Of a DNA stretch of 64,000 nt, positions 6,862-57,006 are shown piece after piece. Below the pieces are notes generated by a model that was given only the letters and a program-made list of their open reading frames with translations, did not search any database and was not told where the DNA came from. The DNA is taken from IMG/VR virus record IMGVR_UViG_3300017917_001940, positions 1 to 64,000 of that record. One strand, written 5' to 3'. The position numbers and the translations under genes are program-made. This DNA comes from a virus. The first letter of the stretch is position 1; each line of letters opens with the position of its first letter.

Positions 6862-6889
6862 TATTTACCAATTTGTTTTACGATAAATA
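6862..6889. promoter_or_regulatory. Divergent pair of T4-like late promoter boxes (TAAATA)
   Basis: TATTTA at 6862-6867 (minus) and TAAATA at 6884-6889 (plus), each 7-9 nt from an ATG. Confidence 0.6.
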
Positions 6890-44995: not shown

Positions 44996-45298
44996 ATGTC
45001 ACAAGCAGAAGTAAAAACAAGAACAAGCCTAGAGATTAAAGAACCTCCTATGTTCAAGGTCATTTATCTCAATGATAACCAAACTACTATGGAATTTGTT
45101 ATTGAGACTTTAGTTGACTTTTTTGATTACAATACAGAAACAGCACTAAAAATTACTGAAGATATTCACCACGAAGGTTCAGCAGTAGTGGCTGTTTTAC
45201 CTTATGAGGTAGCTGAACAAAAAGGCATTGAAGTTACTGTTTGTGCTAGATCCAACAACTATCCTCTTCAAATTAAACTTGAACCTGAGTCTGATTAA
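44996..45298 (+). CDS. clpS: ClpS N-degron adaptor
   Basis: PPMFKVIYLND..TTMEFV, IHHEG, EVAEQK, YPL. Confidence 0.9.
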   Translation: MSQAEVKTRTSLEIKEPPMFKVIYLNDNQTTMEFVIETLVDFFDYNTETALKITEDIHHEGSAVVAVLPYEVAEQKGIEVTVCARSNNYPLQIKLEPESD

Positions 45299-46077
45299 AA
45301 ATCTATTTCAATACGTTTAGGATAATATACTGATTGTTTCCAGGGGGTGTCACCTCGCCCCCGACAATTATTAACAAATCTAATTCCATCTATGTAGCGA
45401 TCAACACCTTTATGGTAGTGACCAAAACACCATGCTTTAATTTTATCTTCAGTATCTTCGTTGATAGCTAATCTCATGTGTTTATTGCCTAGAGTGTTAA
45501 ATCTGTAGGTATCGACTAAATCAATGTCATGATTAACTAATGCAGGGTCTGGTACAGTATGAGTTACAATCACAACAGCCTTAACATCTTTATGAGTTTG
45601 AAGTTTTTCTAGGCTGTTAATAAGGTAAGCCGCATCATTAAATGAAATTCCGGTTATTGAATCAGCTGCCGAGTCTATTTTATCTTGATACCATAAGACA
45701 CTTTCTTCGTAACTTATTGATGAGTCAAAATCATAACCCCACCAACCATTTGTAGCAATGATAGCAACACCATTAATAATTACCACATTGTTTTGCAAAT
45801 ATACTACATTGTCGATATTTTTAAGCACATGATTGAGTTCTCGATAACTTCTTCCTAAATCATTTAGATAATATGCATGTTCATCATTACCGTCGATATA
45901 AAAAACACCCCCGGGATAACAACGACCCAAGTGGCCAAGTGTTTCAACTAATACTCCTCGATCTCTTGCGATGTCTCCTGCTACTACACAATACGGACTC
46001 GTGGCTTGTCCAGTCCAGTTGAACTCATTCCAAGTTTCAATATGTAGGTCAGAAATTAAATCAAATGCAAAAGTCAT
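45295..46077 (-). CDS. Calcineurin-like metallophosphoesterase
   Basis: SDLHIE, AGDI, DGNDEH, THTVP, FGHYH. Confidence 0.85.
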   Translation of the reverse strand: MTFAFDLISDLHIETWNEFNWTGQATSPYCVVAGDIARDRGVLVETLGHLGRCYPGGVFYIDGNDEHAYYLNDLGRSYRELNHVLKNIDNVVYLQNNVVIINGVAIIATNGWWGYDFDSSISYEESVLWYQDKIDSAADSITGISFNDAAYLINSLEKLQTHKDVKAVVIVTHTVPDPALVNHDIDLVDTYRFNTLGNKHMRLAINEDTEDKIKAWCFGHYHKGVDRYIDGIRFVNNCRGRGDTPWKQSVYYPKRIEIDF

Positions 46078-46103: not shown

Positions 46104-46469
46104 ATGAACATAATAATGGGAACCGAGAACGCACAATCATTTGCTGAGAAATATACAGTATTAGAACTTGATATTATTAAGATCATGCCCGAAGGACATT
46201 GTATACCAGCTTATTGTGTAGTTGAAAACATTCCAATACTAGATCTCAATCGAGTTGATAATATGCGCCGATTGCATCGCGGATTGTTGGAAAACTATCG
46301 CCAAAAAAATTGGAACTATTGTATTCAGGCAATTGAGAATCTAACAGGCTTTTGGGGAGGAGAGTTAGACTCGTTCTACGCTGATTTACAGCAACGTATC
46401 AATAAATACTCAGAACAAGATCCAGGGGAGGATTGGGATGGTACAATTGAAAAACATCCTGTTGGTTAG
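46104..46469 (+). CDS. Stand-alone homolog of the adenylate cyclase C-terminal domain
   Basis: YTVLELD..NYRQKNWN..FYADL..DWDG aligns by eye with the tail of the 52388-54439 protein. Confidence 0.55.
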   Translation: MNIIMGTENAQSFAEKYTVLELDIIKIMPEGHCIPAYCVVENIPILDLNRVDNMRRLHRGLLENYRQKNWNYCIQAIENLTGFWGGELDSFYADLQQRINKYSEQDPGEDWDGTIEKHPVG

Positions 46470-46836
46470 TGCCTTAGCATTTCTAACAGCATGTGCCGCT
46501 AAATTTGATCCGTTGGAATACGGACGTGTAGTTGACATTAGACATACTGTCAGCGTAGCACAACAAGAAAACACCTGTGCCAAACCAGCTCAAGCACGTA
46601 CAGTAGCCGATAGCATTTATAGTGATGTTCGTTGGTTAATGATGTACGCTCAATATCTTCCTGATAACAGCCCAGGCGAACAAATGGCAGTGGCACTGTT
46701 TAACACAGCGGCAGAATTTAGCAAACGATACGAAGCTCCGGAACCTGTAAGCAAAGTCTACTGTGATCTTAAACTTAAAACACTTGCGGTACAAGTAGAA
46801 ACAATACAAAAATCACATGGCGGGAGACCTAGATGA
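46438..46836 (+). CDS. Putative lipoprotein
   Basis: Signal with lipobox FLTA-C. Confidence 0.6.
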   Translation: MVQLKNILLVSALAFLTACAAKFDPLEYGRVVDIRHTVSVAQQENTCAKPAQARTVADSIYSDVRWLMMYAQYLPDNSPGEQMAVALFNTAAEFSKRYEAPEPVSKVYCDLKLKTLAVQVETIQKSHGGRPR

Positions 46837-47075
46837 GCATAGCACAACAAATTAATGAAATTTTAGGTCATATTGACCTATCTAACTTTTTAGCCGAACA
46901 AACAGATGCTATTAACAATGCCTATGCCACACAGCAAATATCTGCTGAAGAACGTGATGCATTATTGACTGATCTTGTTAATACAAATGTAGTATTTCAG
47001 GGTGCTAGTGATCAGGATATTCGAGTTTTTCTAGATCGTGTGCTCACAGTAATTAAATCCGCACCACTTCCGTAA
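46833..47075 (+). CDS. Hypothetical protein
   Basis: ATGA-coupled. Confidence 0.55.
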   Translation: MSIAQQINEILGHIDLSNFLAEQTDAINNAYATQQISAEERDALLTDLVNTNVVFQGASDQDIRVFLDRVLTVIKSAPLP

Positions 47076-47128
47076 AAACCCAGCACTAAATTTGTTCTAG
47101 ATCCTGTTAAATACTAATAGGAGCTAGA

Positions 47129-47575
47129 ATGAGAAAAATAATAATAACAATTCTCGCTGGTTTTACTGTTAATGTGTGGGCCGACACCTTAGTTCACCAA
47201 TTTCAATCGCCAGCTTTTATACCGGGTAATGGGTATTCCACTCATGTGCTAACCATTGAACAGCTCGAAGCAAACCGTAAAAAAGCTATACAGGATGCTA
47301 AAAAAGCCGAAGCTGATGCTGCCGCAAGAGCCGCCGCAAATACTAATCTACAAAAATTCCTAAACAACTTTGAAAGTCGTGTTTATGCTCAATTGTCCAA
47401 ACAATTAGCAGACGCTATGTTTTCCTCCACCTCCGGAACCACAGGTACTATAGAATTCCAAGGCACTACTATTACTTGGGACAAGGACACGGTTACCAAT
47501 CAGGTCACGCTAACTATTGTTAGTCCTACAGGAACCACTACGGTTACTGTACCAATAGCGAGCTTTGCATTTTAA
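47129..47575 (+). CDS. csgF: Curli assembly protein CsgF-like
   Basis: Signal peptide; mature start DTLVHQFQSPAF; LQKFLNNFESRVYAQL; adjacent to csgG. Confidence 0.75.
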   Translation: MRKIIITILAGFTVNVWADTLVHQFQSPAFIPGNGYSTHVLTIEQLEANRKKAIQDAKKAEADAAARAAANTNLQKFLNNFESRVYAQLSKQLADAMFSSTSGTTGTIEFQGTTITWDKDTVTNQVTLTIVSPTGTTTVTVPIASFAF

Positions 47576-48354
47576 TGCGAGGCTTAATGACTCTTCTACT
47601 AGCTTTAACCTTAACCGGTTGTGCTGGTCTGCAACTTGATCTTCTCAAAGAAGAACCTGTAGCACTAAAACCCAAAGAAAACTTAATTGCTAAACTGCCC
47701 AAGTTAGATGGTCCACCTATGACCATTGCTGTATACGGATTTATAGATAAAACAGGTCAAAAGAAACCTAGCCAAAACTTAGCGTTGTTTAGTTCAGCAG
47801 TGACACAAGGTGCCGAAGTATTTTTAATTAAAGCACTACAAGATTCACCAGGTTGGTTTAGAGTTGTAGAACGTGTAGGACTAGACAATTTGGTTAAAGA
47901 ACGTCAACTTATTCGAAATCAACGAGAAGTTTACGAAGGTAAGGATGCCAAACCATTAAAGCCATTAACTGTGGCTGGCATTATGATTGAAGGTGGTATT
48001 ATTGGCTATGACAGTAATATCCGTTCAGGTGGTAACGGTGCTCGATTCTTGGGTATCGGAGCCAGCCAACAATATCGAGTCGACGAAGTAGTTATTAGTC
48101 TTAGAATAGTAAGTATTTCGTCAGGTGAGGTATTGTTGACAAACGCTGTGAGCAAAACAATATACAGCACACAGCACGATGTCGCAGTGTTAAAATTCGT
48201 TGATGGTGGCACCAAAGCACTTGAAATGGAAAACGGCTCGGCATTGAATGAACCCACTACCTACGCAGTTCGTGTGGCAATTGAACAAGCGGTATACGAA
48301 TTAATTGTAGAAGGGGAAAAGAAAGGGCTCTGGAGATTTCAGGGCAAACAATAA
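47575..48354 (+). CDS. csgG: Curli secretion channel CsgG-like lipoprotein
   Basis: Lipobox LTG-C; IAVYGFIDKTGQ, SAVTQGA, WFRVVER.GLDNL.KERQLIR, EGGIIGYD. Confidence 0.9.
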   Translation: MRGLMTLLLALTLTGCAGLQLDLLKEEPVALKPKENLIAKLPKLDGPPMTIAVYGFIDKTGQKKPSQNLALFSSAVTQGAEVFLIKALQDSPGWFRVVERVGLDNLVKERQLIRNQREVYEGKDAKPLKPLTVAGIMIEGGIIGYDSNIRSGGNGARFLGIGASQQYRVDEVVISLRIVSISSGEVLLTNAVSKTIYSTQHDVAVLKFVDGGTKALEMENGSALNEPTTYAVRVAIEQAVYELIVEGEKKGLWRFQGKQ

Positions 48355-48965
48355 TGATAAGAAGTATTTTAATACTCACAATGATGATGTTAGCTGGCGT
48401 TGGAGTCGTTAGTGCCAATGAGGTGTATATTGAACAAATTGGTGATGGTACAAGCATCTCAGTTACTCAAGAAGGATCTAACAACAACATGGGTAGTGCC
48501 AATGCATCGGCATATATCGGTGGTGATGCGAATGATGTAACTGTTAGCCAAGTTGGTTCAAATAATAGTTTGACAATGACCATTGGTGGTAACACTAATA
48601 CTGTTAACGTGAATACTACTGGTAGTAATAATACGCAAGAAATTACCTGCGGTACCAGTGCAAGCCAAACTTGTAGTAGTTCGACTATTACCCAAACAGT
48701 CACTGGTGACTCAAACACTGTGACACAAACTTTAGGTAGTGGTGCAACACGTACAAGTAATATAAACATTACAGGTGATTACAACACTGTAACACATACT
48801 GCTAGTGGTGTTGGCTCTCATAGTGCTGACATTACAGTTAGCGGCAGTGGTACATCGTTGCTTAATAACCATGTTAGCGTAACACAAGAAGGTGCAAATG
48901 CTAAGACAGCAGTGGTTAACGCCACGGGTAATAATATCAATATTGGTATTACTCAGCGCGATTGA
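48354..48965 (+). CDS. Curlin-like secreted repeat protein
   Basis: Signal peptide; EQIG, TQEGSNN, SQVGSNN, TTGSNN, VTGDSN, ITGDYN repeats. Confidence 0.7.
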   Translation: MIRSILILTMMMLAGVGVVSANEVYIEQIGDGTSISVTQEGSNNNMGSANASAYIGGDANDVTVSQVGSNNSLTMTIGGNTNTVNVNTTGSNNTQEITCGTSASQTCSSSTITQTVTGDSNTVTQTLGSGATRTSNINITGDYNTVTHTASGVGSHSADITVSGSGTSLLNNHVSVTQEGANAKTAVVNATGNNINIGITQRD

Positions 48966-49995
48966 TAGTTGGGCCGGTGTTGGAAAAGTGACAGAACAAA
49001 CAGGCCCAACTGAAATCGTTAGATCAAAAAAGTCACTGCCGTCGGCGGTGAATACCCCTGTGGAGATGAACGATACCATCATCACTGCCAAGGCTCGGGC
49101 ACAGTTGACCTTTGAGGATAATACCACTGTAAAGATTACTGAACAAAGCAAATTAGTCATAGACGACTTTGTCTATGATCCTAAAAAAGGCACAGGCAAA
49201 GTTGCTATGAAAGTTGTTCTGGGCACAGCTCGCTATTCTTCAGGACAAATAGCCAAGACAAATCCACAAGCAGTGGATGTTAAAACTCCTACTGCTACCG
49301 TGGCTGTTCGCGGCACAGATTTTTCTATGACTGTAGACGAACTAGGGCGCAGTCTTGTTATGTTATTGCCCAGTTGCGATGACAAAGGTTGTGTAACTGG
49401 TGCGATTTTAGTTAAAAATGACGCAGGTGAAGTTTTTATGGATCAGCCATATCAAGCCACACTAGTTGCTACGCTAACCACACCGCCTACAGCTCCTGTA
49501 TTTGTAACCTTAGATCAGGCTAATATTAACAACATGTTAATTGTCAGTCCACCTAAACAGTTTAAAGATGAAGAGCTACAAAAAGAATCAAAGTCAGCAC
49601 TAGATATAAACTTTCTTAATCAAGACTTTTTAAAGTATAGTAAACTTGACGAAGATGAACTTAAAAAGTTTAGAGAATTAGACATGAATTATCTTGACAC
49701 AGATTTTTTGGCCAACATGCTAGATTTAGCCAACGCACAGTTGTCTGCTAGCCAAGAGCAAATGCTCAGTCAAAATACCATGTTGCCTGGCTATAATGCC
49801 GCTACAGGTTTAACGTATGGTATTGATGCAGATGACGACAGTAAACTTGTGCTACGCAGAGGCAACGATCATATTGCTCAAGTTACCGTAAATCGCGAAG
49901 CAAATTTAGTATTAAATATTACACAATCAGGCAACCCATTAACACAGCAGGTTAATCGCGGAGGAACGACGGTAATTACTATTAATCAACGATGA
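48898..49995 (+). CDS. FecR-domain periplasmic protein (start re-called to ATG 48898)
   Basis: Signal ending SWA; FEDNTTVKITEQSKL, TPTATVAVRGTDF FecR motifs. Confidence 0.8.
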   Translation: MLRQQWLTPRVIISILVLLSAIDSWAGVGKVTEQTGPTEIVRSKKSLPSAVNTPVEMNDTIITAKARAQLTFEDNTTVKITEQSKLVIDDFVYDPKKGTGKVAMKVVLGTARYSSGQIAKTNPQAVDVKTPTATVAVRGTDFSMTVDELGRSLVMLLPSCDDKGCVTGAILVKNDAGEVFMDQPYQATLVATLTTPPTAPVFVTLDQANINNMLIVSPPKQFKDEELQKESKSALDINFLNQDFLKYSKLDEDELKKFRELDMNYLDTDFLANMLDLANAQLSASQEQMLSQNTMLPGYNAATGLTYGIDADDDSKLVLRRGNDHIAQVTVNREANLVLNITQSGNPLTQQVNRGGTTVITINQR

Positions 49996-50005
49996 GGAGA
50001 TTAGT

Positions 50006-50152
50006 ATGAACGGCAAGACCATGAAACTATTAGTTGAGTATATTGCAGATCAACATAGAAAAGAGCGTGAACGTTATGCTCAAACCTATCGAACAATATA
50101 TCAAAAACCCAGTGATACTAAAGAAGTTAATCAAACTAAGGATAATAAATGA
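50006..50152 (+). CDS. Small hypothetical protein (48 aa)
   Basis: GAGGAG SD. Confidence 0.45.
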   Translation: MNGKTMKLLVEYIADQHRKERERYAQTYRTIYQKPSDTKEVNQTKDNK

Positions 50153-50241
50153 GCTGGTTTAGACACAGGCCGCCAAGGTACCCACCAGAACCACAACAAG
50201 ACCCGGTACCTGACACGTTTTGGCCACCCGAAAACGAATAA
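50149..50241 (+). CDS. Pro-rich peptide (30 aa)
   Basis: ATGA-coupled; MSWFRHRPP. Confidence 0.35.
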   Translation: MSWFRHRPPRYPPEPQQDPVPDTFWPPENE

Positions 50242-50271
50242 ATACCTACATAATAACAATAAGGGGCTATC

Positions 50272-50553
50272 ATGGGTGACATTTTTAAACTCATAGGTGA
50301 TCTTGGTTTTCCAATTGCTGTAGCACTAGCAGGCGGATACTTTGTTTATCTAACAATCAAACTATTATTGCAGGGTGTATTAGGCAGTATTCGCGGCATG
50401 GCGGGTATTATTACTGCACTAGATAACCGTGTAAAGACAATGAATCATGATGTTATACGTATTGATACTGTGGTATCAAATGCACTAGGTCTGCGTCCAG
50501 ACGTAGATCGTATTAGTCGAGCTGATGGCAAAAACGACGCACGGAGAGATTAG
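50272..50553 (+). CDS. Small membrane protein (GFPI family, paralog A)
   Basis: GFPI-TM helix + coiled coil; ATAAATA upstream. Confidence 0.65.
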   Translation: MGDIFKLIGDLGFPIAVALAGGYFVYLTIKLLLQGVLGSIRGMAGIITALDNRVKTMNHDVIRIDTVVSNALGLRPDVDRISRADGKNDARRD

Positions 50554-50554
50554 T

Positions 50555-50692
50555 ATGTTAATGTTTACAATTATTGCTGTAATTGCTGTACTTTTGTACA
50601 TCAACGAACGAGAAGAATCTCCTAATCAACACCAAGAAGATTTAAAATTAGCCAAAGAATTTTATCTTAAACAACGCTACTATCGTGGATAA
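50555..50692 (+). CDS. Small membrane peptide (45 aa)
   Basis: GGAGA SD; hydrophobic N-terminus. Confidence 0.4.
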   Translation: MLMFTIIAVIAVLLYINEREESPNQHQEDLKLAKEFYLKQRYYRG

Positions 50693-50833
50693 CAATAACC
50701 AACGATTAGTTTTGGTAGAAAATAAAGAGGACGACACCCTCGAGTTTAAATATGTAACGGATCAAGAGTATGCTTGGATGCTATTACAAGAGCAAACTAA
50801 ACAGCCGAAGGATTTAACTTAAGGAGACGTAGT

Positions 50834-50995
50834 ATGAAATTTGTAGATTATACTTTTACAAGGACTTTTGATGATAACATCTTATTTGATCCAGAACTAA
50901 CACCCGAGCAGTTAGGAGTTAAGACTGGTGATTGTTTTGAAGTTAAAATAAGAGACAACGTCATTATTTTAGAAAAGAAACAATACAATGAATAA
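50834..50995 (+). CDS. Small protein, AbrB-like swapped-hairpin pattern possible (53 aa)
   Basis: AAGGAG SD; QLGVKTGDCFEVKIRDNVIILEK. Confidence 0.4.
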   Translation: MKFVDYTFTRTFDDNILFDPELTPEQLGVKTGDCFEVKIRDNVIILEKKQYNE

Positions 50996-51353
50996 ATTAT
51001 TAGCCCTGGTCTTGTTGCTTGTCAGTACCTTGACTTGGGCTGATAATCGTTCCTGGACTCCTGAAGAGCAAGCACGGTTGGCTACAGCTGCCGCGGTTAC
51101 AGTAGCCGACTGGTCAACTACAAGAGATTTATCTCGACGATACAACGAGGGATATCACGAGAATAATCCTATTCTTGTCAAGCACCCAAGTACAGGTCGT
51201 GTGGATTTGTATTTTGTCTCAGCTGGACTGTTAGGCTATGCAATCGCCGACAATTTAGATCAATATAGAAAACCATTTCTACAAACATGGACTGCTGTGG
51301 AAATATATTATACAAACAGAAACCTTAACATAGGTTTAAGAATGAAATTTTAG
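50988..51353 (+). CDS. Secreted hypothetical protein
   Basis: Signal ending TWA; C-terminal IGLRMKF. Confidence 0.6.
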   Translation: MNKLLALVLLLVSTLTWADNRSWTPEEQARLATAAAVTVADWSTTRDLSRRYNEGYHENNPILVKHPSTGRVDLYFVSAGLLGYAIADNLDQYRKPFLQTWTAVEIYYTNRNLNIGLRMKF

Positions 51354-51361
51354 GAGTTAAC

Positions 51362-51688
51362 ATGGATGTAGTAGGATTGATAAACAAGTATGGATTTCCA
51401 ATTGTCATGGCAGTTGGAATGGGATATATTATAAAATATGTGTGGGAATGGTCAACTAAAGAAGTTAAGCCAGTTATCTCTGAAGCAAACACAGTGCTTA
51501 TCGCTCTTATTGATCGTATCCGCATGTTGGATAATGATCTCATCCGCTTAAATCAAAAAGTAAACACCGTATTACATCTTCGTGGTAAGACTATTGAATA
51601 TGAGCGTGTGGAAGCTGAGATGGAAATTAATAAAACTGTACACAAAAAATCTGAAGATGATCAAACTGCAAGTGCAGGTGAAGGTTGA
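51362..51688 (+). CDS. Small membrane protein (GFPI family, paralog B)
   Basis: YGFPI-TM helix + coiled coil; similar to 50272-50553. Confidence 0.65.
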   Translation: MDVVGLINKYGFPIVMAVGMGYIIKYVWEWSTKEVKPVISEANTVLIALIDRIRMLDNDLIRLNQKVNTVLHLRGKTIEYERVEAEMEINKTVHKKSEDDQTASAGEG

Positions 51689-51705
51689 TTTAACTAAATA
51701 TTATT

Positions 51706-52221
51706 ATGAGATTAAAAGAGATTACTAACGAAGGAAAAGTCGGCGGATTCCCATCATCATTGCAAAGAATCACCGCACCGTATACAGGTGGAGGTCCTCG
51801 AGTAAATGAACCAGCATTTGTAAAAGCCGGCAAGCAAAAAAAATATCAACGAACTGTTGATTTTAATGATTTAAAAACCGACAAAGAAAAATTTGAATTC
51901 ATATACAACTTAAAAGTTGGTAAAACTACAAATAAAGCGGTGTTCGAAATTCCAGGGACCAACGGAAGTAAAGTTATCAGTTATGATCCACAAACTGGCA
52001 ACATTGAACTTGAAGTTGCTAGAGGAAAGAATGTTGATTTGTACTCTGGTAATGCTAATAATTTTAAATTTTTGGGTAGAGAAAAATCTCCTAGCACTCC
52101 GTTAATAAAGTATAAGTTTAGTCCTGGGGCTCTTGAAGATCTGGGTCCGGCTGTCCGTAAAACAAAAACTCAAGCAAACCCTTTTAGCAAACCATCGACT
52201 CTTACTAAGTTACCTTGGTAA
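51706..52221 (+). CDS. Basic hypothetical, probable head-internal protein
   Basis: TAAATA 5 nt upstream; MRLKEITNE N-terminus. Confidence 0.5.
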   Translation: MRLKEITNEGKVGGFPSSLQRITAPYTGGGPRVNEPAFVKAGKQKKYQRTVDFNDLKTDKEKFEFIYNLKVGKTTNKAVFEIPGTNGSKVISYDPQTGNIELEVARGKNVDLYSGNANNFKFLGREKSPSTPLIKYKFSPGALEDLGPAVRKTKTQANPFSKPSTLTKLPW

Positions 52222-52440
52222 ACAAATACCTGAACCAATCCACGGGCCCAAACTGGCTCTAGTAGGTTCAAACAATAAATTCCATTGCGGTTGTGTGCCT
52301 GTTAGTATATTACCTGGCAAGTAATGCCAGAATAAAAAACTACTAATCATACTATCAACAATCCAGTCGCTAATCTTACCGACAGGACTATTTGCTAGTT
52401 GCTCGGTATACTGAGTCCCAATCTGATGGTAGTTCAACAT
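52210..52440 (-). CDS. Hypothetical protein
   Basis: Follows cyclase on the same strand. Confidence 0.4.
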   Translation of the reverse strand: MLNYHQIGTQYTEQLANSPVGKISDWIVDSMISSFLFWHYLPGNILTGTQPQWNLLFEPTRASLGPWIGSGICLPR

Positions 52441-54439
52441 TTTTCATCTCCTCGCATCTTTCAATCCATATATCATAGTAGTGATCCATTGCACCTTCAA
52501 ATCGACCTTTAAGTTCACGACATTGTTTAATCGCTTGGTCAAACTTCTGTTTGCGGTACAGTGCCAACATAGCATCGTGTAACTGATGGTCGCCTGTGTC
52601 AGCGTTTATTTCATCCTTACGTCCTAGTACAGTATAGATATGTACTCCTTCTGTTTTGCCTTTAACAGCAATACAATCTAGTTCGAGTACATAGTATTCG
52701 TCTGCTACATATTCTGCCGTCTTCGGGCCCAATACGATTTTGACACCATACGGTTTACTTTGCCCTTCAAGACGCGATGCGAGATTGACGCTATCTCCAA
52801 GGCAAGTATAATCGAAACGCTGATCACTGCCCATATTCCCAACAACAACAATCCCGGTATTAATACCAAGACCCATTCCAAAAGGTGGAACACCTTCAGC
52901 AGTAATTTCTTTATTAAATTCATCTAAACTCCCTAACATTTCTAATCCTGTGCGTACAGCATGTTTGGCGTGGTCTGCATCTTTAATCGGTGCGTTCCAA
53001 AATGCCATTTGAGCATCACCAATATATTTGTCCAGTGTGCCGCGATTCTCTAAAATCTTTTTAGTCATGGCAGTCATGTAACGATTCATGATCTTGGTCA
53101 AGCCTTGTACATCTCTACCATAGTGTTCACTGATGCTGGTAAAGCCACGCACATCTGTAAACATAATAGTCAACTCTTGTTCCTCACCACCTAGGCGTAG
53201 TAAGTCTGGACTGCGCTGTAGTTGTGCTACTAGGTCTGGACTCAAGTATGTGCCAAATTGTTTCTTTATTTGTTGCTTTTGCAAGAACTCGCTGACGAAC
53301 TTGACACCGTATGCGTGGAGGGACACAATAAGAATTGCGCCAACAAAGGCAGTGACATCATATAGATACAAACCGTAGCGGTAAGCAAGATGACTACCAA
53401 CCACGGCAATAAGTGTTGTTCCCACAACTGTCGCCAATCCAACATAAACATACCTCGTTAAAAATAATAAACCTACACCTGCTAATAATATAGCAAGTAA
53501 CTCTACACCATCTGCGTAATCAGGACGTTTGATAGTTACACCATTAATCATTGTGCTGATAGCACTAGCTTGAAACTCTTGTGGCCACATAGCACCTTGA
53601 GCAGTTGGCACAGGATTACCCAACCCTGCGGCAGCCGGCCCTACAATAACAATAGCATTACCAAAGTCTTTGGGCAAGTTAGTTAAACTTACGCTCTTTG
53701 ATTTTTGACTTAGGTCAACCCACACACGACCTAGGTTATCTGTTGTGATAGGACCAAATGCTGGCACACGCATCTTCTCTACACCAAGTTCATTTAACTT
53801 AACTTGGAATGTATTGTCACCTGCGGCCACCCGCAAAGTTTCCATCGACAAACTTGGGTATAGTTTATCACCCACTGCTACGACCATTGGCAAGCGACGA
53901 TTAACACCATCTACTTCTGGTAGTGTGCCGACAATTCCCACGCCCACTGCACTTGCTTCTAGAGGGCGAATGTTGGCAATTAATCCTGGATATTGTACAA
54001 CTTGTCCTAAGTATTCTGCACCAATAACAGCCGACCCTGGTTGCTTAGGTGGGTTCTTAGTTTTCTCACTTGGAACACTTGGTAGAATGACTGGATATTG
54101 TTTAAGTGCGTTGGCTAATACAGCATCGCCGCCTGTGCGATCTGGCTCAGCCATAAGGACATTAAACACAACAAGACCAGCATTACGACGATACAAATCT
54201 TTAATGATTTCAGCATATTGATCCCTTGGTAAAGGCCATTGGCCATATCGGTCTAATGTTGCTTCATCTATATTAACTGTGTATATATTGTTTTCTGTAG
54301 GAGCCTTGCTGGTAATCAGTGTGTCAAAATATTTTAAACGAACTGATTCTACAAATGCGGGATCTGCTACTCGCACACATAACACCAGGGCTAATGTAAC
54401 CAACGCAGTCCATGGGTTAATTAGAAGTTTTTTAAGCAT
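52388..54439 (-). CDS. CHASE2-domain class III adenylate cyclase
   Basis: TM-CHASE2 (VNIDE..GQWPLPR)-3TM; FTDVRGFT, DKYIGDA, GINTG, YTCLGDSVNLASRLE. Confidence 0.92.
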   Translation of the reverse strand: MLKKLLINPWTALVTLALVLCVRVADPAFVESVRLKYFDTLITSKAPTENNIYTVNIDEATLDRYGQWPLPRDQYAEIIKDLYRRNAGLVVFNVLMAEPDRTGGDAVLANALKQYPVILPSVPSEKTKNPPKQPGSAVIGAEYLGQVVQYPGLIANIRPLEASAVGVGIVGTLPEVDGVNRRLPMVVAVGDKLYPSLSMETLRVAAGDNTFQVKLNELGVEKMRVPAFGPITTDNLGRVWVDLSQKSKSVSLTNLPKDFGNAIVIVGPAAAGLGNPVPTAQGAMWPQEFQASAISTMINGVTIKRPDYADGVELLAILLAGVGLLFLTRYVYVGLATVVGTTLIAVVGSHLAYRYGLYLYDVTAFVGAILIVSLHAYGVKFVSEFLQKQQIKKQFGTYLSPDLVAQLQRSPDLLRLGGEEQELTIMFTDVRGFTSISEHYGRDVQGLTKIMNRYMTAMTKKILENRGTLDKYIGDAQMAFWNAPIKDADHAKHAVRTGLEMLGSLDEFNKEITAEGVPPFGMGLGINTGIVVVGNMGSDQRFDYTCLGDSVNLASRLEGQSKPYGVKIVLGPKTAEYVADEYYVLELDCIAVKGKTEGVHIYTVLGRKDEINADTGDHQLHDAMLALYRKQKFDQAIKQCRELKGRFEGAMDHYYDIWIERCEEMKNVELPSDWDSVYRATSK

Positions 54440-54446
54440 CTAATAT

Positions 54447-55760
54447 TTATTTACGGCTAGCTAGGTATCTGTTGTAGTATTTTCTGGCTTTGGATAGAAT
54501 GGCTATATTCTGCTCGAGTGTTAGTGGAGTAATACCTCGGGGAAAAAATTGATTATATAATTTTGGTATACCTGCTAATTTTTTTCTAATTGTTAGATAG
54601 ATTTCGCTTGTATTTGTATTTTCAAGAGTATTGAGCCCAGTTTTAAGATTCTCTCTTAATTCACCAGATACTAAGTTAAAGAATGCATCACTGAAAAAAT
54701 GTTGTTGATTATAGATAGCAATGGTTTTGAGTTGTTGCATCTTATACTGTCGTTCTTCTGATGTCCAATTTTTAATGGTTTTCATAACTTCAATTATTGC
54801 TTCTAATCGAGTGTAATGATCTTCAATTTTATCATAACTTTCATCAATGATACCATCAAATGTTTTAAACCCGTAGCTGTGCAAATATTCTAGAGACCTT
54901 GGAGTACCAGCAAGTATAAACGGTTGTTGGCAAGCAATTGGACGCAATACCTTCTCTGTTAAGTGATTTCTTGGATCTTGAAATAATGTTTCAAGTACAA
55001 TTTCAAAGTTAGTCGACTTATAATCCTCTACATCAAAATCAGCACTATAACAACTAGTGGTGAGGTTTTCTTGAAAATGTTTCTCGAGTTGATTATTTGG
55101 TTTCCATTGTTTATTGATGAATTTGTAATTTGTGTAATGGGTATTGTTATCTGTAAACCCAATGGACGTTTGACATTCGTTAATTAGGTTGTGTTCTATT
55201 AGTAAGTCGGCAAACTTTAATCGATATTCTCTTGTTCCACTCCAAGCCCGGTTGTAAACTAAAAACAGTTTGGTATTATCGTGCTTTCTAAAGTCAACAT
55301 GTTGAGCATATCTAAACCAGTCTCGAGAAATTAATGCATGACTCCAATAATATATCGGAATAAAATTCATTCTTTTATATACGTCAACTTGTGGGGAATT
55401 TCTTTCGCTATGTAACAATAAACATAAATCGTAAATATTTCCAGGGAAGTACCGAAGATTTCTCATCAATGTTGGAGCATTGTTTTCGGTAAAAATTTTA
55501 CACACAAACTCGTTTTCTCCTAACTTTGGATTTAATGTTGGTTTTTGATCTTGATAAAGTTGATAATTTAACGGTTCTTGGTCGTTACAGTATAATTCAG
55601 CAGTTGTCAATTGAGTTACCTCATCGACAATTTTTAATAATGTTAAATCTTCTATTTTTTTACTCCCATGGGGCAAAAAACGATAAATTAGTACATCGCC
55701 GTAAACATCTTGGGCGACACTTTCAATATAGTGATACAATCTATCTAAAGGAATACTCAT
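54447..55760 (-). CDS. Glycosyltransferase-like hypothetical protein (start re-called to 55760)
   Basis: LVYNR, IVLET, HLTEKVLRPIACQQPFILAG..GFKTF pattern. Confidence 0.45.
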   Translation of the reverse strand: MSIPLDRLYHYIESVAQDVYGDVLIYRFLPHGSKKIEDLTLLKIVDEVTQLTTAELYCNDQEPLNYQLYQDQKPTLNPKLGENEFVCKIFTENNAPTLMRNLRYFPGNIYDLCLLLHSERNSPQVDVYKRMNFIPIYYWSHALISRDWFRYAQHVDFRKHDNTKLFLVYNRAWSGTREYRLKFADLLIEHNLINECQTSIGFTDNNTHYTNYKFINKQWKPNNQLEKHFQENLTTSCYSADFDVEDYKSTNFEIVLETLFQDPRNHLTEKVLRPIACQQPFILAGTPRSLEYLHSYGFKTFDGIIDESYDKIEDHYTRLEAIIEVMKTIKNWTSEERQYKMQQLKTIAIYNQQHFFSDAFFNLVSGELRENLKTGLNTLENTNTSEIYLTIRKKLAGIPKLYNQFFPRGITPLTLEQNIAILSKARKYYNRYLASRK

Positions 55761-57006
55761 GAAAAATATTGGTTTTATTGGATTAGGAAAATTAGGCCTT
55801 GACTGCGCCGAAGTTATGGCTGAAAAACACACAGTACGGGGTTATGATATTTACCCACGTACAAGTGATGCGGTAAAAGTTTGCTCCATTGAAGAAACAG
55901 TGAACGAAAGCGAATGGATCTTTATCGCAGTTCCTACTCCACACGAAGAAGGTTATGATGGTAGTGTGCCTAGCTCACACATGACTCCAAAGGACTTTGG
56001 GCATGATGCTGTTAAGGATGCTATCCAGAAGGTAAACCAATATGCTACAAGTCCTAAAAAAGTTGTGTTAATTAGTACAGTACTACCGGGCACAACTCGC
56101 AGGCACTTTATTACGTTACTAGACAAAAAGCATCAGTTCTTATACAACCCATATTTGATTGCCATGGGCAGTGTTAAGTGGGACATGGTTAATCCAGAAA
56201 TGATCATGATTGGTACAGAAGATGGTAACCCAAACACCTTAGCTGGTGAGTTGATTGACATTTACAAAACAATCATGCAAAACAATCCACGCTATGAAAT
56301 TGGCACATGGGATGAATGTGAAGCAATCAAGATTTTCTATAACACATTTATTTCGGCTAAAGTTGGCTTGGCCAACATGATCCAAGACTTTGCTCTTAAA
56401 ATTGGCAACATCAACGTTGACGTAGTTACCAATGCATTGGCCCGTAGTACCATGCGTATTATGGGTCCTAAGTATATGACAGCAGGTATGGGAGATGCAG
56501 GTGCTTGCCACCCACGTGATAATATTGCCTTGCGTTGGTTAGCACAAGAATACGAAGTAGGCTACGACTTGTTCGACACTATCATGCATGCTCGCGAAAT
56601 CCAAGCAAAGAACTTGGCACTATTCTTAGTTGATCAAGCCAAGAAATCTAACTTGCCTATTGCTATTCACGGTAAAGCATACAAGCCCGACGTTCCGTAC
56701 TGTATTGGAAGTTATTCAACATTAGTTGGTTATTATGTTGAAGAGGCAGGATTGCCTGTTGTTTACGTAGATCCATTAGCTGACGATGCTACTAAAGTTG
56801 TTGCTAGTGTGGATACACCAGCAGTTTATTTGTGGGCACACAATCGTAAAGTAACCTACGAATACACAGGTGATCAAGAAGCAACTAAACCATATTGTGA
56901 AATCAAGCCAGGTTCAGTTATCGTAGATCCATGGCGTCAATTGCCATTAGACATGGCAGATATTAAGGTTGTACACTATGGTAACACACGCAATAGCCAA
57001 GTATAA
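55759..57006 (+). CDS. UDP-glucose/GDP-mannose dehydrogenase family protein
   Basis: GFIGLGKLG, IAVPTP, ISTVLPG, YNP, KIFYN, GACHPRD, GKAYKP. Confidence 0.85.
   Translation: MKNIGFIGLGKLGLDCAEVMAEKHTVRGYDIYPRTSDAVKVCSIEETVNESEWIFIAVPTPHEEGYDGSVPSSHMTPKDFGHDAVKDAIQKVNQYATSPKKVVLISTVLPGTTRRHFITLLDKKHQFLYNPYLIAMGSVKWDMVNPEMIMIGTEDGNPNTLAGELIDIYKTIMQNNPRYEIGTWDECEAIKIFYNTFISAKVGLANMIQDFALKIGNINVDVVTNALARSTMRIMGPKYMTAGMGDAGACHPRDNIALRWLAQEYEVGYDLFDTIMHAREIQAKNLALFLVDQAKKSNLPIAIHGKAYKPDVPYCIGSYSTLVGYYVEEAGLPVVYVDPLADDATKVVASVDTPAVYLWAHNRKVTYEYTGDQEATKPYCEIKPGSVIVDPWRQLPLDMADIKVVHYGNTRNSQV

Follow-up and report, generated by a model that had tools for sequence, protein, structure and literature searches.

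What could a phage gain by encoding a curli secretion pore together with a FecR-domain protein and a CHASE2 adenylate cyclase? This question is raised by the IMG/VR virus record IMGVR_UViG_3300017917_001940, of which the first 64 kb (the window; 64,000 nucleotides of a 129.8-kb viral contig with a CheckV completeness of 38%) were analyzed here. Within the window, genes for CsgF, CsgG, a curlin-type subunit, and a secreted FecR-fold protein are followed by genes for two small membrane proteins and a CHASE2 adenylate cyclase, and an initial annotation made from the DNA letters alone proposed that these genes constitute a trans-envelope signaling system. The reading favored by the present analysis, to which we give about an even chance, is that the FecR-fold protein and the CHASE2 cyclase represent a bacterial envelope-sensor pair that has been joined to a phage curli machine, tying the synthesis of cyclic AMP (cAMP) to the fiber or pore.

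Much of the evidence for such a pair comes from bacterial genomes. CHASE2 was found in 52 of the 121 alphaproteobacterial genomes sampled. Around 40 of the CHASE2 genes, an open reading frame (ORF) with a FecR domain lies within ~6 kb in 21 cases and is directly adjacent in 13, and no CsgG or CsgF was found at these 40 loci. In five genomes, 14 of the 19 CHASE2 genes have a FecR gene within ~7 kb, compared with a chance expectation of ~1.6% per 15-kb interval, and 15 of the 27 FecR genes stand beside a CHASE2 gene. Genuinely bacterial relatives of the phage FecR protein are encoded beside a CHASE2 protein in 4/16 cases and beside CsgG/CsgF in 0/16. Nine of the 21 FecR partners of CHASE2 are at least 790 residues long, and in three alphaproteobacterial genomes adhesin-like proteins of 1400–2100 residues are encoded directly beside CHASE2 adenylate cyclases. 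In these adhesin-like partners, the FecR domain is N-terminal and precedes Ig, cadherin, LamG, Calx-beta, VWA, and RTX repeats, and the pairing of CHASE2 cyclases with FecR-headed giant adhesins appears to be unstudied. An operon of FecR and a CHASE2 kinase has been described in Burkholderia (BiofilmReg), with homologs in P. aeruginosa (PMC5192318). In S. meliloti, the outer-membrane barrel NsrA is needed for CHASE2 cyclases to raise cAMP upon an external protein signal (PMC13001267).

The top 'bacterial' matches to the FecR protein were treated as mis-binned phage DNA, as they belong to full phage modules on short contigs in taxonomically incoherent metagenome-assembled genomes. Such complete phage curli-FecR-cyclase modules were seen in assemblies labelled Flavobacteriaceae, Rhodobacteraceae, Legionellales, Luteolibacter, and Pirellulales.

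The genes of the locus were called from the ORF listing and from Pfam, NCBIfam, and PHROG searches, combined with a reading of the translations:

46104–46469, + strand: paralog of the cyclase C-terminus, 121 residues (BLASTP against the window cyclase)
46438–46836, + strand: lineage-specific lipoprotein, 132 residues, lipobox LTAC (translation)
46833–47075, + strand: lineage-specific 80-residue ORF without an export signal (translation)
47129–47575, + strand: CsgF with signal peptide (Pfam CsgF, E 2e-14; phrog_35372, E 2e-44)
47575–48354, + strand: CsgG lipoprotein, the outer-membrane pore, lipobox LTGC (Pfam CsgG, E 2e-54)
48354–48965, + strand: secreted curlin-type β-solenoid subunit (Curlin_rpt, 29.2 bits)
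48892–49995, + strand: secreted FecR-fold protein (Pfam FecR, E 8e-12; phrog_37870, E 1e-97)
50272–50553, + strand: small single-pass membrane protein A (phrog_18771, E 5e-30)
51362–51688, + strand: small single-pass membrane protein B, a paralog of A (phrog_18771, E 5e-29)
52388–54439, − strand: CHASE2/three-transmembrane-segment/class III adenylate cyclase, 683 residues (CHASE2, E 1e-38; Guanylate_cyc, E 2e-20; phrog_35576, E 3e-230)

The ORF listing and Pfam matches place csgF, csgG, and the curlin, FecR, small membrane protein, and CHASE2 cyclase genes exactly where the initial annotation had put them. Its description of the lipoprotein, csgF, csgG, curlin, and FecR genes as a coupled operon fits the gene ends, which touch or overlap from csgF through to the FecR gene (1 nt for csgF/csgG, 1 nt for csgG/curlin, and ~70 nt for curlin/FecR). 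The cyclase gene is convergent with the csg genes, and a run of small ORFs lies between it and the FecR gene. Full-length PHROG families exist for CsgF, CsgG, the FecR protein, the cyclase, and the small membrane proteins. The initial annotation had also recognized no csgE, csgC, or csgD; this stands for the first two, with no CsgE or CsgC match in the 129.8-kb contig and no CsgE in five complete relatives, while CsgD was not searched.

The FecR protein consists of a signal peptide, a β domain (residues 30–205), a disordered linker of acidic LDxNFL repeats (residues 210–272), a helix, and a six-strand C-terminal β domain (residues 307–366). In the AlphaFold2 (AF2) model, the predicted local distance difference test score (pLDDT) is 79.9 overall, and both the β domain and the C-terminal domain are confident. 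The β domain superimposes on the periplasmic cell-surface-signaling domain of PupR (6ovm; Z 15.5, 137 residues aligned, root-mean-square deviation (rmsd) 2.7 Å) and on 4m0h, a Bacteroidetes anti-sigma factor (Z 13.9). Since the phage protein lacks both a membrane anchor and a cytoplasmic anti-sigma domain, it is not itself an anti-sigma factor. Its C-terminal domain has no match to any Pfam family, including CsgC, CsgE, and Curlin_rpt.

The second member of the proposed pair retains the catalytic residues of a class III adenylate cyclase. Alignment to the solved cyclases 6fht and 2w01 confirmed the catalytic set read from the translation in the initial annotation, as both metal-binding Asp, the ATP-specifying Lys (DKYIGD), the Thr (YTCLGD), and the Asn/Arg pair (VNLASRLE) are intact. 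The CHASE2 domain spans residues 15–321 (Pfam E 1e-38), and the sequence suggests that it lies between an N-terminal transmembrane (TM) segment and a 3-TM block. The protein encoded at 46104–46469 is 26% identical to the cyclase (BLASTP E 2e-12) over a region equivalent to cyclase residues 566–675; it covers the end of the catalytic domain and the C-terminal helical tail and lacks the catalytic core. This paralog of the cyclase tail, which the initial annotation had missed, stands as a gene of its own in at least 14 related jumbo-phage loci (40–60% identity), where it sits between a phosphoesterase-like gene and csgF, and it could function as a decoy or regulator of the cyclase tail. The ORF at 45295–46077 (− strand, 260 residues) has a sub-threshold match to calcineurin-like phosphoesterases, is divergent from the module, and occupies the same position in 11 related loci. 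It was considered as a cAMP phosphodiesterase and rejected, as the Metallophos_2 match is sub-threshold only and no match was obtained among solved structures.

The association of these genes is not peculiar to the window. Two sets of 80 IMG/VR loci, found through FecR and through the CsgG of Pelagibacter phage HTVC008M, respectively, were used to assess co-occurrence and synteny in phage genomes, and the families proved to be linked far beyond chance across these 160 loci. When all window genes were mapped onto the FecR-found loci, curlin was present in 79/80, CsgG in 78/80, CsgF in 75/80, the cyclase in 62/80, and each small protein in 61/80, with the absences falling at contig ends. The core of csgF, csgG, curlin, and FecR is colinear in 80/80 of these loci, and the FecR gene directly follows the curlin gene. 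Gene order is likewise invariant among the CsgG-found loci, with FecR in 19/19 and the cyclase in 16/16 of those with sufficient flank. The small pair and the cyclase occur in three arrangements among the FecR-found loci. One is the pelagiphage order, another consists of the core, the cyclase, and an inverted small pair, and the third, seen in the window, consists of the core, the small pair, and an inverted cyclase and is one inversion away from the second. Every jumbo-type locus with enough flank contains the cyclase.

In a FastTree phylogeny, all 58 phage cyclases, including that of the window, group together with a support of 100 and are separated from the 34 alphaproteobacterial CHASE2 cyclases; this phage clade includes a pelagimyophage branch and a large jumbo branch. 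The contigs that carry the closest FecR homologs in IMG/VR (44–74% identity) reach 364 kb, and five of them are complete genomes of 337–364 kb, three with terminal repeats. The contig also encodes GroEL, Hsp20, a ClpA-type ATPase, and radical-SAM enzymes. The carrier is a member of this 337–364 kb jumbo-phage clade, in which the module is a fixture. Pairs of csgF and csgG have been reported in some aquatic T4-like phages; the present carrier is not T4-like, and no paper describing the module in a jumbo phage was found. Within this clade (80 loci and the window), the first ~55–75 nt of the FecR gene overlap the end of the curlin gene, so that one stretch of DNA encodes the last curlin repeat in one frame and the FecR signal peptide in another; HTVC008M and the Methylophilales phages Melnitz have a shorter overlap or none.

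Signal peptides are evident in the translations of CsgF, curlin, and the FecR protein. CsgF is 46–50% identical to its counterparts in HTVC008M and Melnitz, and CsgG aligns to E. coli CsgG end to end (residues 4–258, E 7e-48). In the constriction loop of CsgG, Phe56 of the E. coli protein is kept, Tyr51 and Asn55 are replaced by Ser and Leu, respectively, and one extra residue is present. The curlin-type subunit scores 29.2 bits against Curlin_rpt (cut-off 20.7 bits, Pfam), and its AF2 model, built from an alignment of 53 homologs, is a regular β-solenoid of 14 regular strands (pLDDT 88, predicted template modeling score 0.82). The E. coli CsgA fibril 8enq matches this model with a Z of 14.0 over 111/111 residues (20% identity, rmsd 8.5 Å), standing among generic β-helices in the list of structure matches. 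The subunit is a credible CsgA-type β-solenoid with a signal peptide and a candidate amyloid protein. Two nearly invariant Cys enclose a short loop in the middle of the solenoid (residues 99–107, …CGTSASQTC…) that has no equivalent in E. coli CsgA and may be a disulfide-stapled insertion. Judged by sequence and predicted fold, the phage is equipped to provide, during infection, both an outer-membrane pore of CsgG and CsgF and an exported β-solenoid subunit of the curlin type.

That the two small membrane proteins are conserved parts of the module was overlooked in the initial annotation. Proteins A and B have 93–108 residues and retain a GFPI-type membrane helix followed by a coiled coil. An all-against-all comparison identifies them as one-to-one homologs of the two genes that precede csgF in the isolates and that are displaced in the window, with protein A 54–55% identical to Melnitz gene 97 and HTVC008M gp011 and protein B 47–51% identical to Melnitz gene 98 and HTVC008M gp012. 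The published label of histidine kinase ('HK') for these proteins finds no support: they have 93–108 residues only, without a HisKA/DHp or HATPase_c match, and no histidine-kinase domain was detected in 32 family members at E up to 1. A protein-atlas search with the small proteins returned viral clusters only, and no homologs were found in the bacterial FecR or CHASE2 loci.

The gene set of this module has appeared in the literature in stages. The CsgF/CsgG operon was reported in pelagimyophages by Zaragoza-Solas et al. in 2020 (PMC7029224), and a lysis-timing pore was proposed for Melnitz by Buchholz et al. in 2022, who made no mention of FecR or the cyclase (PMC9004378). The whole set ('HK', CsgF, CsgG, CsgA/B, FecR, a second CsgA/B that is frequent and not universal, and adenylate cyclase) was then described in SAR11 podophages and myophages by Wittmers et al. 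(2022), together with its ocean-wide distribution, its transcripts in metatranscriptomes, and its placement in a monophyletic viral clade (PMC9599517). These authors read FecR as an iron regulator and never mentioned CHASE2 (PMC9599517). The statement in the initial annotation that no functional description of the complete module is known is consequently not correct, although that study gave the gene set, distribution, and transcription, not experiments (PMC9599517). In our tblastn searches, the cyclase and CsgG occur together in HTVC008M and Melnitz. The annotated order in both, all on one strand, runs from two small genes through csgF, csgG, curlin, and FecR to a second curlin-like gene and the cyclase. 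No homolog of this second curlin (gp018, Melnitz gene 103) was found in the window.

How the parts might work together can be set out as follows. Besides the pore and its subunit, the phage can provide the infected cell with a FecR-fold protein for export, two single-pass membrane proteins specific to phages, and an adenylate cyclase of the inner membrane with CHASE2 as its periplasmic sensor domain. The FecR-fold protein and the cyclase would have been taken as an envelope-sensor pair from bacteria, in which a FecR domain often forms the N-terminal, periplasm-side end of a giant adhesin encoded beside a CHASE2 cyclase. The FecR protein, whose gene always lies directly after the curlin gene, would link the fiber or pore to the CHASE2 domain and so make cAMP production in the infected cell depend on the state of a phage-made surface structure. 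Host aggregation, the sensing of superinfection, or the timing of lysis may be the purpose. The cAMP would then be read by a host protein, an output suggested because no domain that binds cyclic nucleotide monophosphates (cNMP) was found in the phage. The trans-envelope signaling idea of the initial annotation is plausible as a hypothesis, with the NsrA cascade of S. meliloti as a working analogue, and the direction it assigned to the signal, from pore state through FecR to cAMP, is pure inference. A more specific version, which we consider unlikely, makes the FecR-fold protein the end of the curli fiber that stays in the periplasm, lodged in or under the CsgG pore like the N-terminal plug of an RTX adhesin, with the CHASE2 cyclase reading the state of this protein as an outside-in sensor of contact or load. 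If true, such a sensor would turn cell-cell contact, a superinfecting phage, or fiber growth into cAMP, and the same logic would extend to the bacterial giant adhesins that carry an N-terminal FecR domain beside CHASE2 cyclases.

Several results weigh against a sensor pair of this kind. A search for cNMP-binding domains in the contig and the five complete relatives gave no match, GAF and other receptor types not having been searched. The N-terminal retention domain of a Marinomonas ice adhesin (5ix9) matches the FecR protein weakly (Z 7.3); this match was rejected as a sign of a C-terminal retention domain, as it maps to residues 27–121 within the FecR domain and its Z is within the range of common arrangements. 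A curlin rung at the FecR C-terminus, suggested by a weak but consistent resemblance to the final repeat of the curlin (hhalign probability 40%, E 2.9e-4) and by matches of the curlin hidden Markov model to ~30 FecR C-termini at E 0.002–0.2, is a tentative reading, as AF2 gives a compact six-strand domain with Ig-like matches only (Z ~4). In S. meliloti, the FecR-domain gene smc02177, which lies beside cyaD1, is a target of cAMP/Clr and is dispensable for signal perception (PMC5498481), so the FecR/CHASE2 pair may work in the opposite direction or not as a sensor and co-sensor. Finally, podophage modules often contain FecR without the cyclase (PMC9599517), and FecR may therefore serve the curli machine first.

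This last point leads to a less probable alternative in which two functions share one locus, the FecR protein being a curli accessory (a chaperone, gate, nucleator, or anchor) that replaces CsgE, CsgC, or CsgB and the cyclase being a separate host-takeover enzyme that responds to another periplasmic cue. The podophage modules that keep FecR without the cyclase (PMC9599517) fit this explanation, as does the fixed, translationally coupled position of FecR directly after curlin, compared with the shifting of the cyclase and small proteins among three arrangements. That no CsgE or CsgC was found and that the FecR C-terminus weakly resembles the last curlin repeat are also in its favor. However, the C-terminal domain of FecR shows no match to the CsgC, CsgE, or curlin families, FecR–CHASE2 linkage is strong in bacteria without curli genes, and the cyclase is kept in 16/16 myophage-type loci and in all jumbo-type loci with enough flank. 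The lysis-timing proposal made for Melnitz (Buchholz et al. 2022, PMC9004378) would treat CsgG/CsgF as a gated, pinholin-like pore and the small proteins as a holin and an antiholin-like partner, with cAMP or periplasmic cues setting the time of lysis. Two small single-pass paralogs are indeed always in the module, and one of them faintly matches a holin PHROG (E 0.0019), but CsgG is an outer-membrane pore while holins act in the inner membrane, the proposal assumed no fiber genes whereas a conserved secreted curlin-type solenoid is present, and the module has no endolysin or spanin gene; we regard this explanation as improbable. A function in uptake or iron regulation, an option in Wittmers et al. 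(2022), would have an ungated CsgG import cofactors or siderophores and the FecR protein act as an iron-citrate-type regulator (PMC9599517). The family name of FecR and the failure to find CsgE agree with this suggestion. It is nevertheless very improbable, given that the FecR protein has only a signal peptide without a TM segment or cytoplasmic anti-sigma domain, that no TonB-dependent transducer or extracytoplasmic function (ECF) sigma factor gene is present among the scanned ORFs of the module and flanks, and that the bacterial relatives pair with CHASE2 sensors and adhesins.

The interest of a FecR–CHASE2 pair attached to a curli machine is increased by the abundance of the module, which accounts for ~0.1% of assembled viral proteins according to Wittmers et al. 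(PMC9599517); few auxiliary gene blocks are as widespread in ocean phages. An infected cell would gain a surface structure that the host may lack and, in addition, a second-messenger enzyme. Once FecR is read as a CHASE2 partner and not as an iron regulator, an otherwise puzzling set of genes yields a hypothesis that can be tested, and cultivable phage-host systems that contain the module are available (HTVC008M/SAR11 and Melnitz/OM43).

The regulatory signals of the locus appear to be those of the phage as a whole. The TAAATA boxes noted in the initial annotation before csgF (47108) and the cyclase (54444–54453) are present, but the motif is a genome-wide upstream motif and not specific to the module. 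The window contains 44 copies of TAAATA, compared with ~81 expected, and the motif is thus depleted overall; 23 of the 44 copies lie in the 5.5% of the DNA that is non-coding, and 21 precede a same-strand start by no more than 40 nt. Copies such as those at 6884, 18567, 34103, 39249, 47108, 51695, and 54444 are concentrated 3–30 nt upstream of starts on the coding strand, many of them so near the start codon that a normal leader has no room. TAAATA is probably a phage promoter or initiation-region motif. T4-type late promoters were rejected because the T4 late box TATAAATA is not enriched, with 2 copies in 64 kb versus 5.9 expected, and consensus promoter and terminator scans of the DNA performed no better than shuffles.

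Several ORFs around the module have a narrower distribution. Homologs of the 132-residue lipoprotein were found in only 4–6 related loci, without a match in the Pfam, NCBIfam, or PHROG searches, and those of the 80-residue ORF at 46833–47075 in 2–3 loci only. Between the small membrane paralogs lies the gene for a secreted protein of 121 residues (50988–51353, + strand) that occurs only in this window among the loci compared; the protein closes with ...NIGLRMKF, whose C-terminal Phe motif resembles the β-signal of outer-membrane proteins. Directly upstream of the cyclase, an ORF of 461 residues (54447–55832, − strand) was rejected as the second curlin (gp018, Melnitz gene 103), as it has no similarity to that protein and looks cytoplasmic. 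Only 8 nt separate the end of this ORF from the start of the cyclase, which is on the same strand, and the ORF is divergent from a UDP-glucose/GDP-mannose dehydrogenase gene; the pair (54447–57006) accompanies the module in ~12 loci and resembles a glycan-modification cassette.

Comparison with known systems helps to delimit what is shared and what is particular to the phage module. Like the csgBAC-csgDEFG system of E. coli, the module contains a CsgG that aligns end to end, a CsgF of the same family, and a CsgA-like β-solenoid subunit. Unlike that system, it has no detected CsgE or CsgC, the constriction residues Tyr51 and Asn55 are substituted, and it also encodes a FecR protein, a cyclase, and small membrane proteins. 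The FecR/PupR anti-sigma factors share the periplasmic domain fold with the phage protein, which in contrast lacks their TM anchor and N-terminal cytoplasmic anti-sigma domain and would be free in the periplasm or exported.

The bacterial FecR/CHASE2 pairs have in common with the module a secreted FecR-domain protein encoded beside a membrane sensor whose periplasmic domain is CHASE2. Those examined, however, are found without CsgG/CsgF, have either a histidine kinase or a cyclase as output, and often employ LysM-FecR proteins or giant adhesins as partners. In the NsrA-CyaD1/CyaD2/CyaK-Clr cascade of S. meliloti, an outer-membrane protein feeds CHASE2 cyclases, which is the logic proposed in the initial annotation; NsrA is not CsgG, though, and the cascade has the CRP-type receiver Clr, whereas no cNMP-binding protein was found in the phage clade. 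The closest counterpart is the viral type VIII secretion system region of HTVC008M (gp011–gp019) and Melnitz (genes 97–104), with which the module shares its families one-to-one (37–55% identity), the same cyclase clade, and the lack of CsgE. The window differs in that its carrier is a jumbo phage rather than a T4-like myophage or an HTVC023P-type podophage, that the cyclase is inverted with the small proteins between FecR and the cyclase, and that a lineage-specific lipoprotein, the cyclase-tail paralog, and several small ORFs are added. The gene set itself is already published, and the rearranged jumbo-phage copy is an addition made here.

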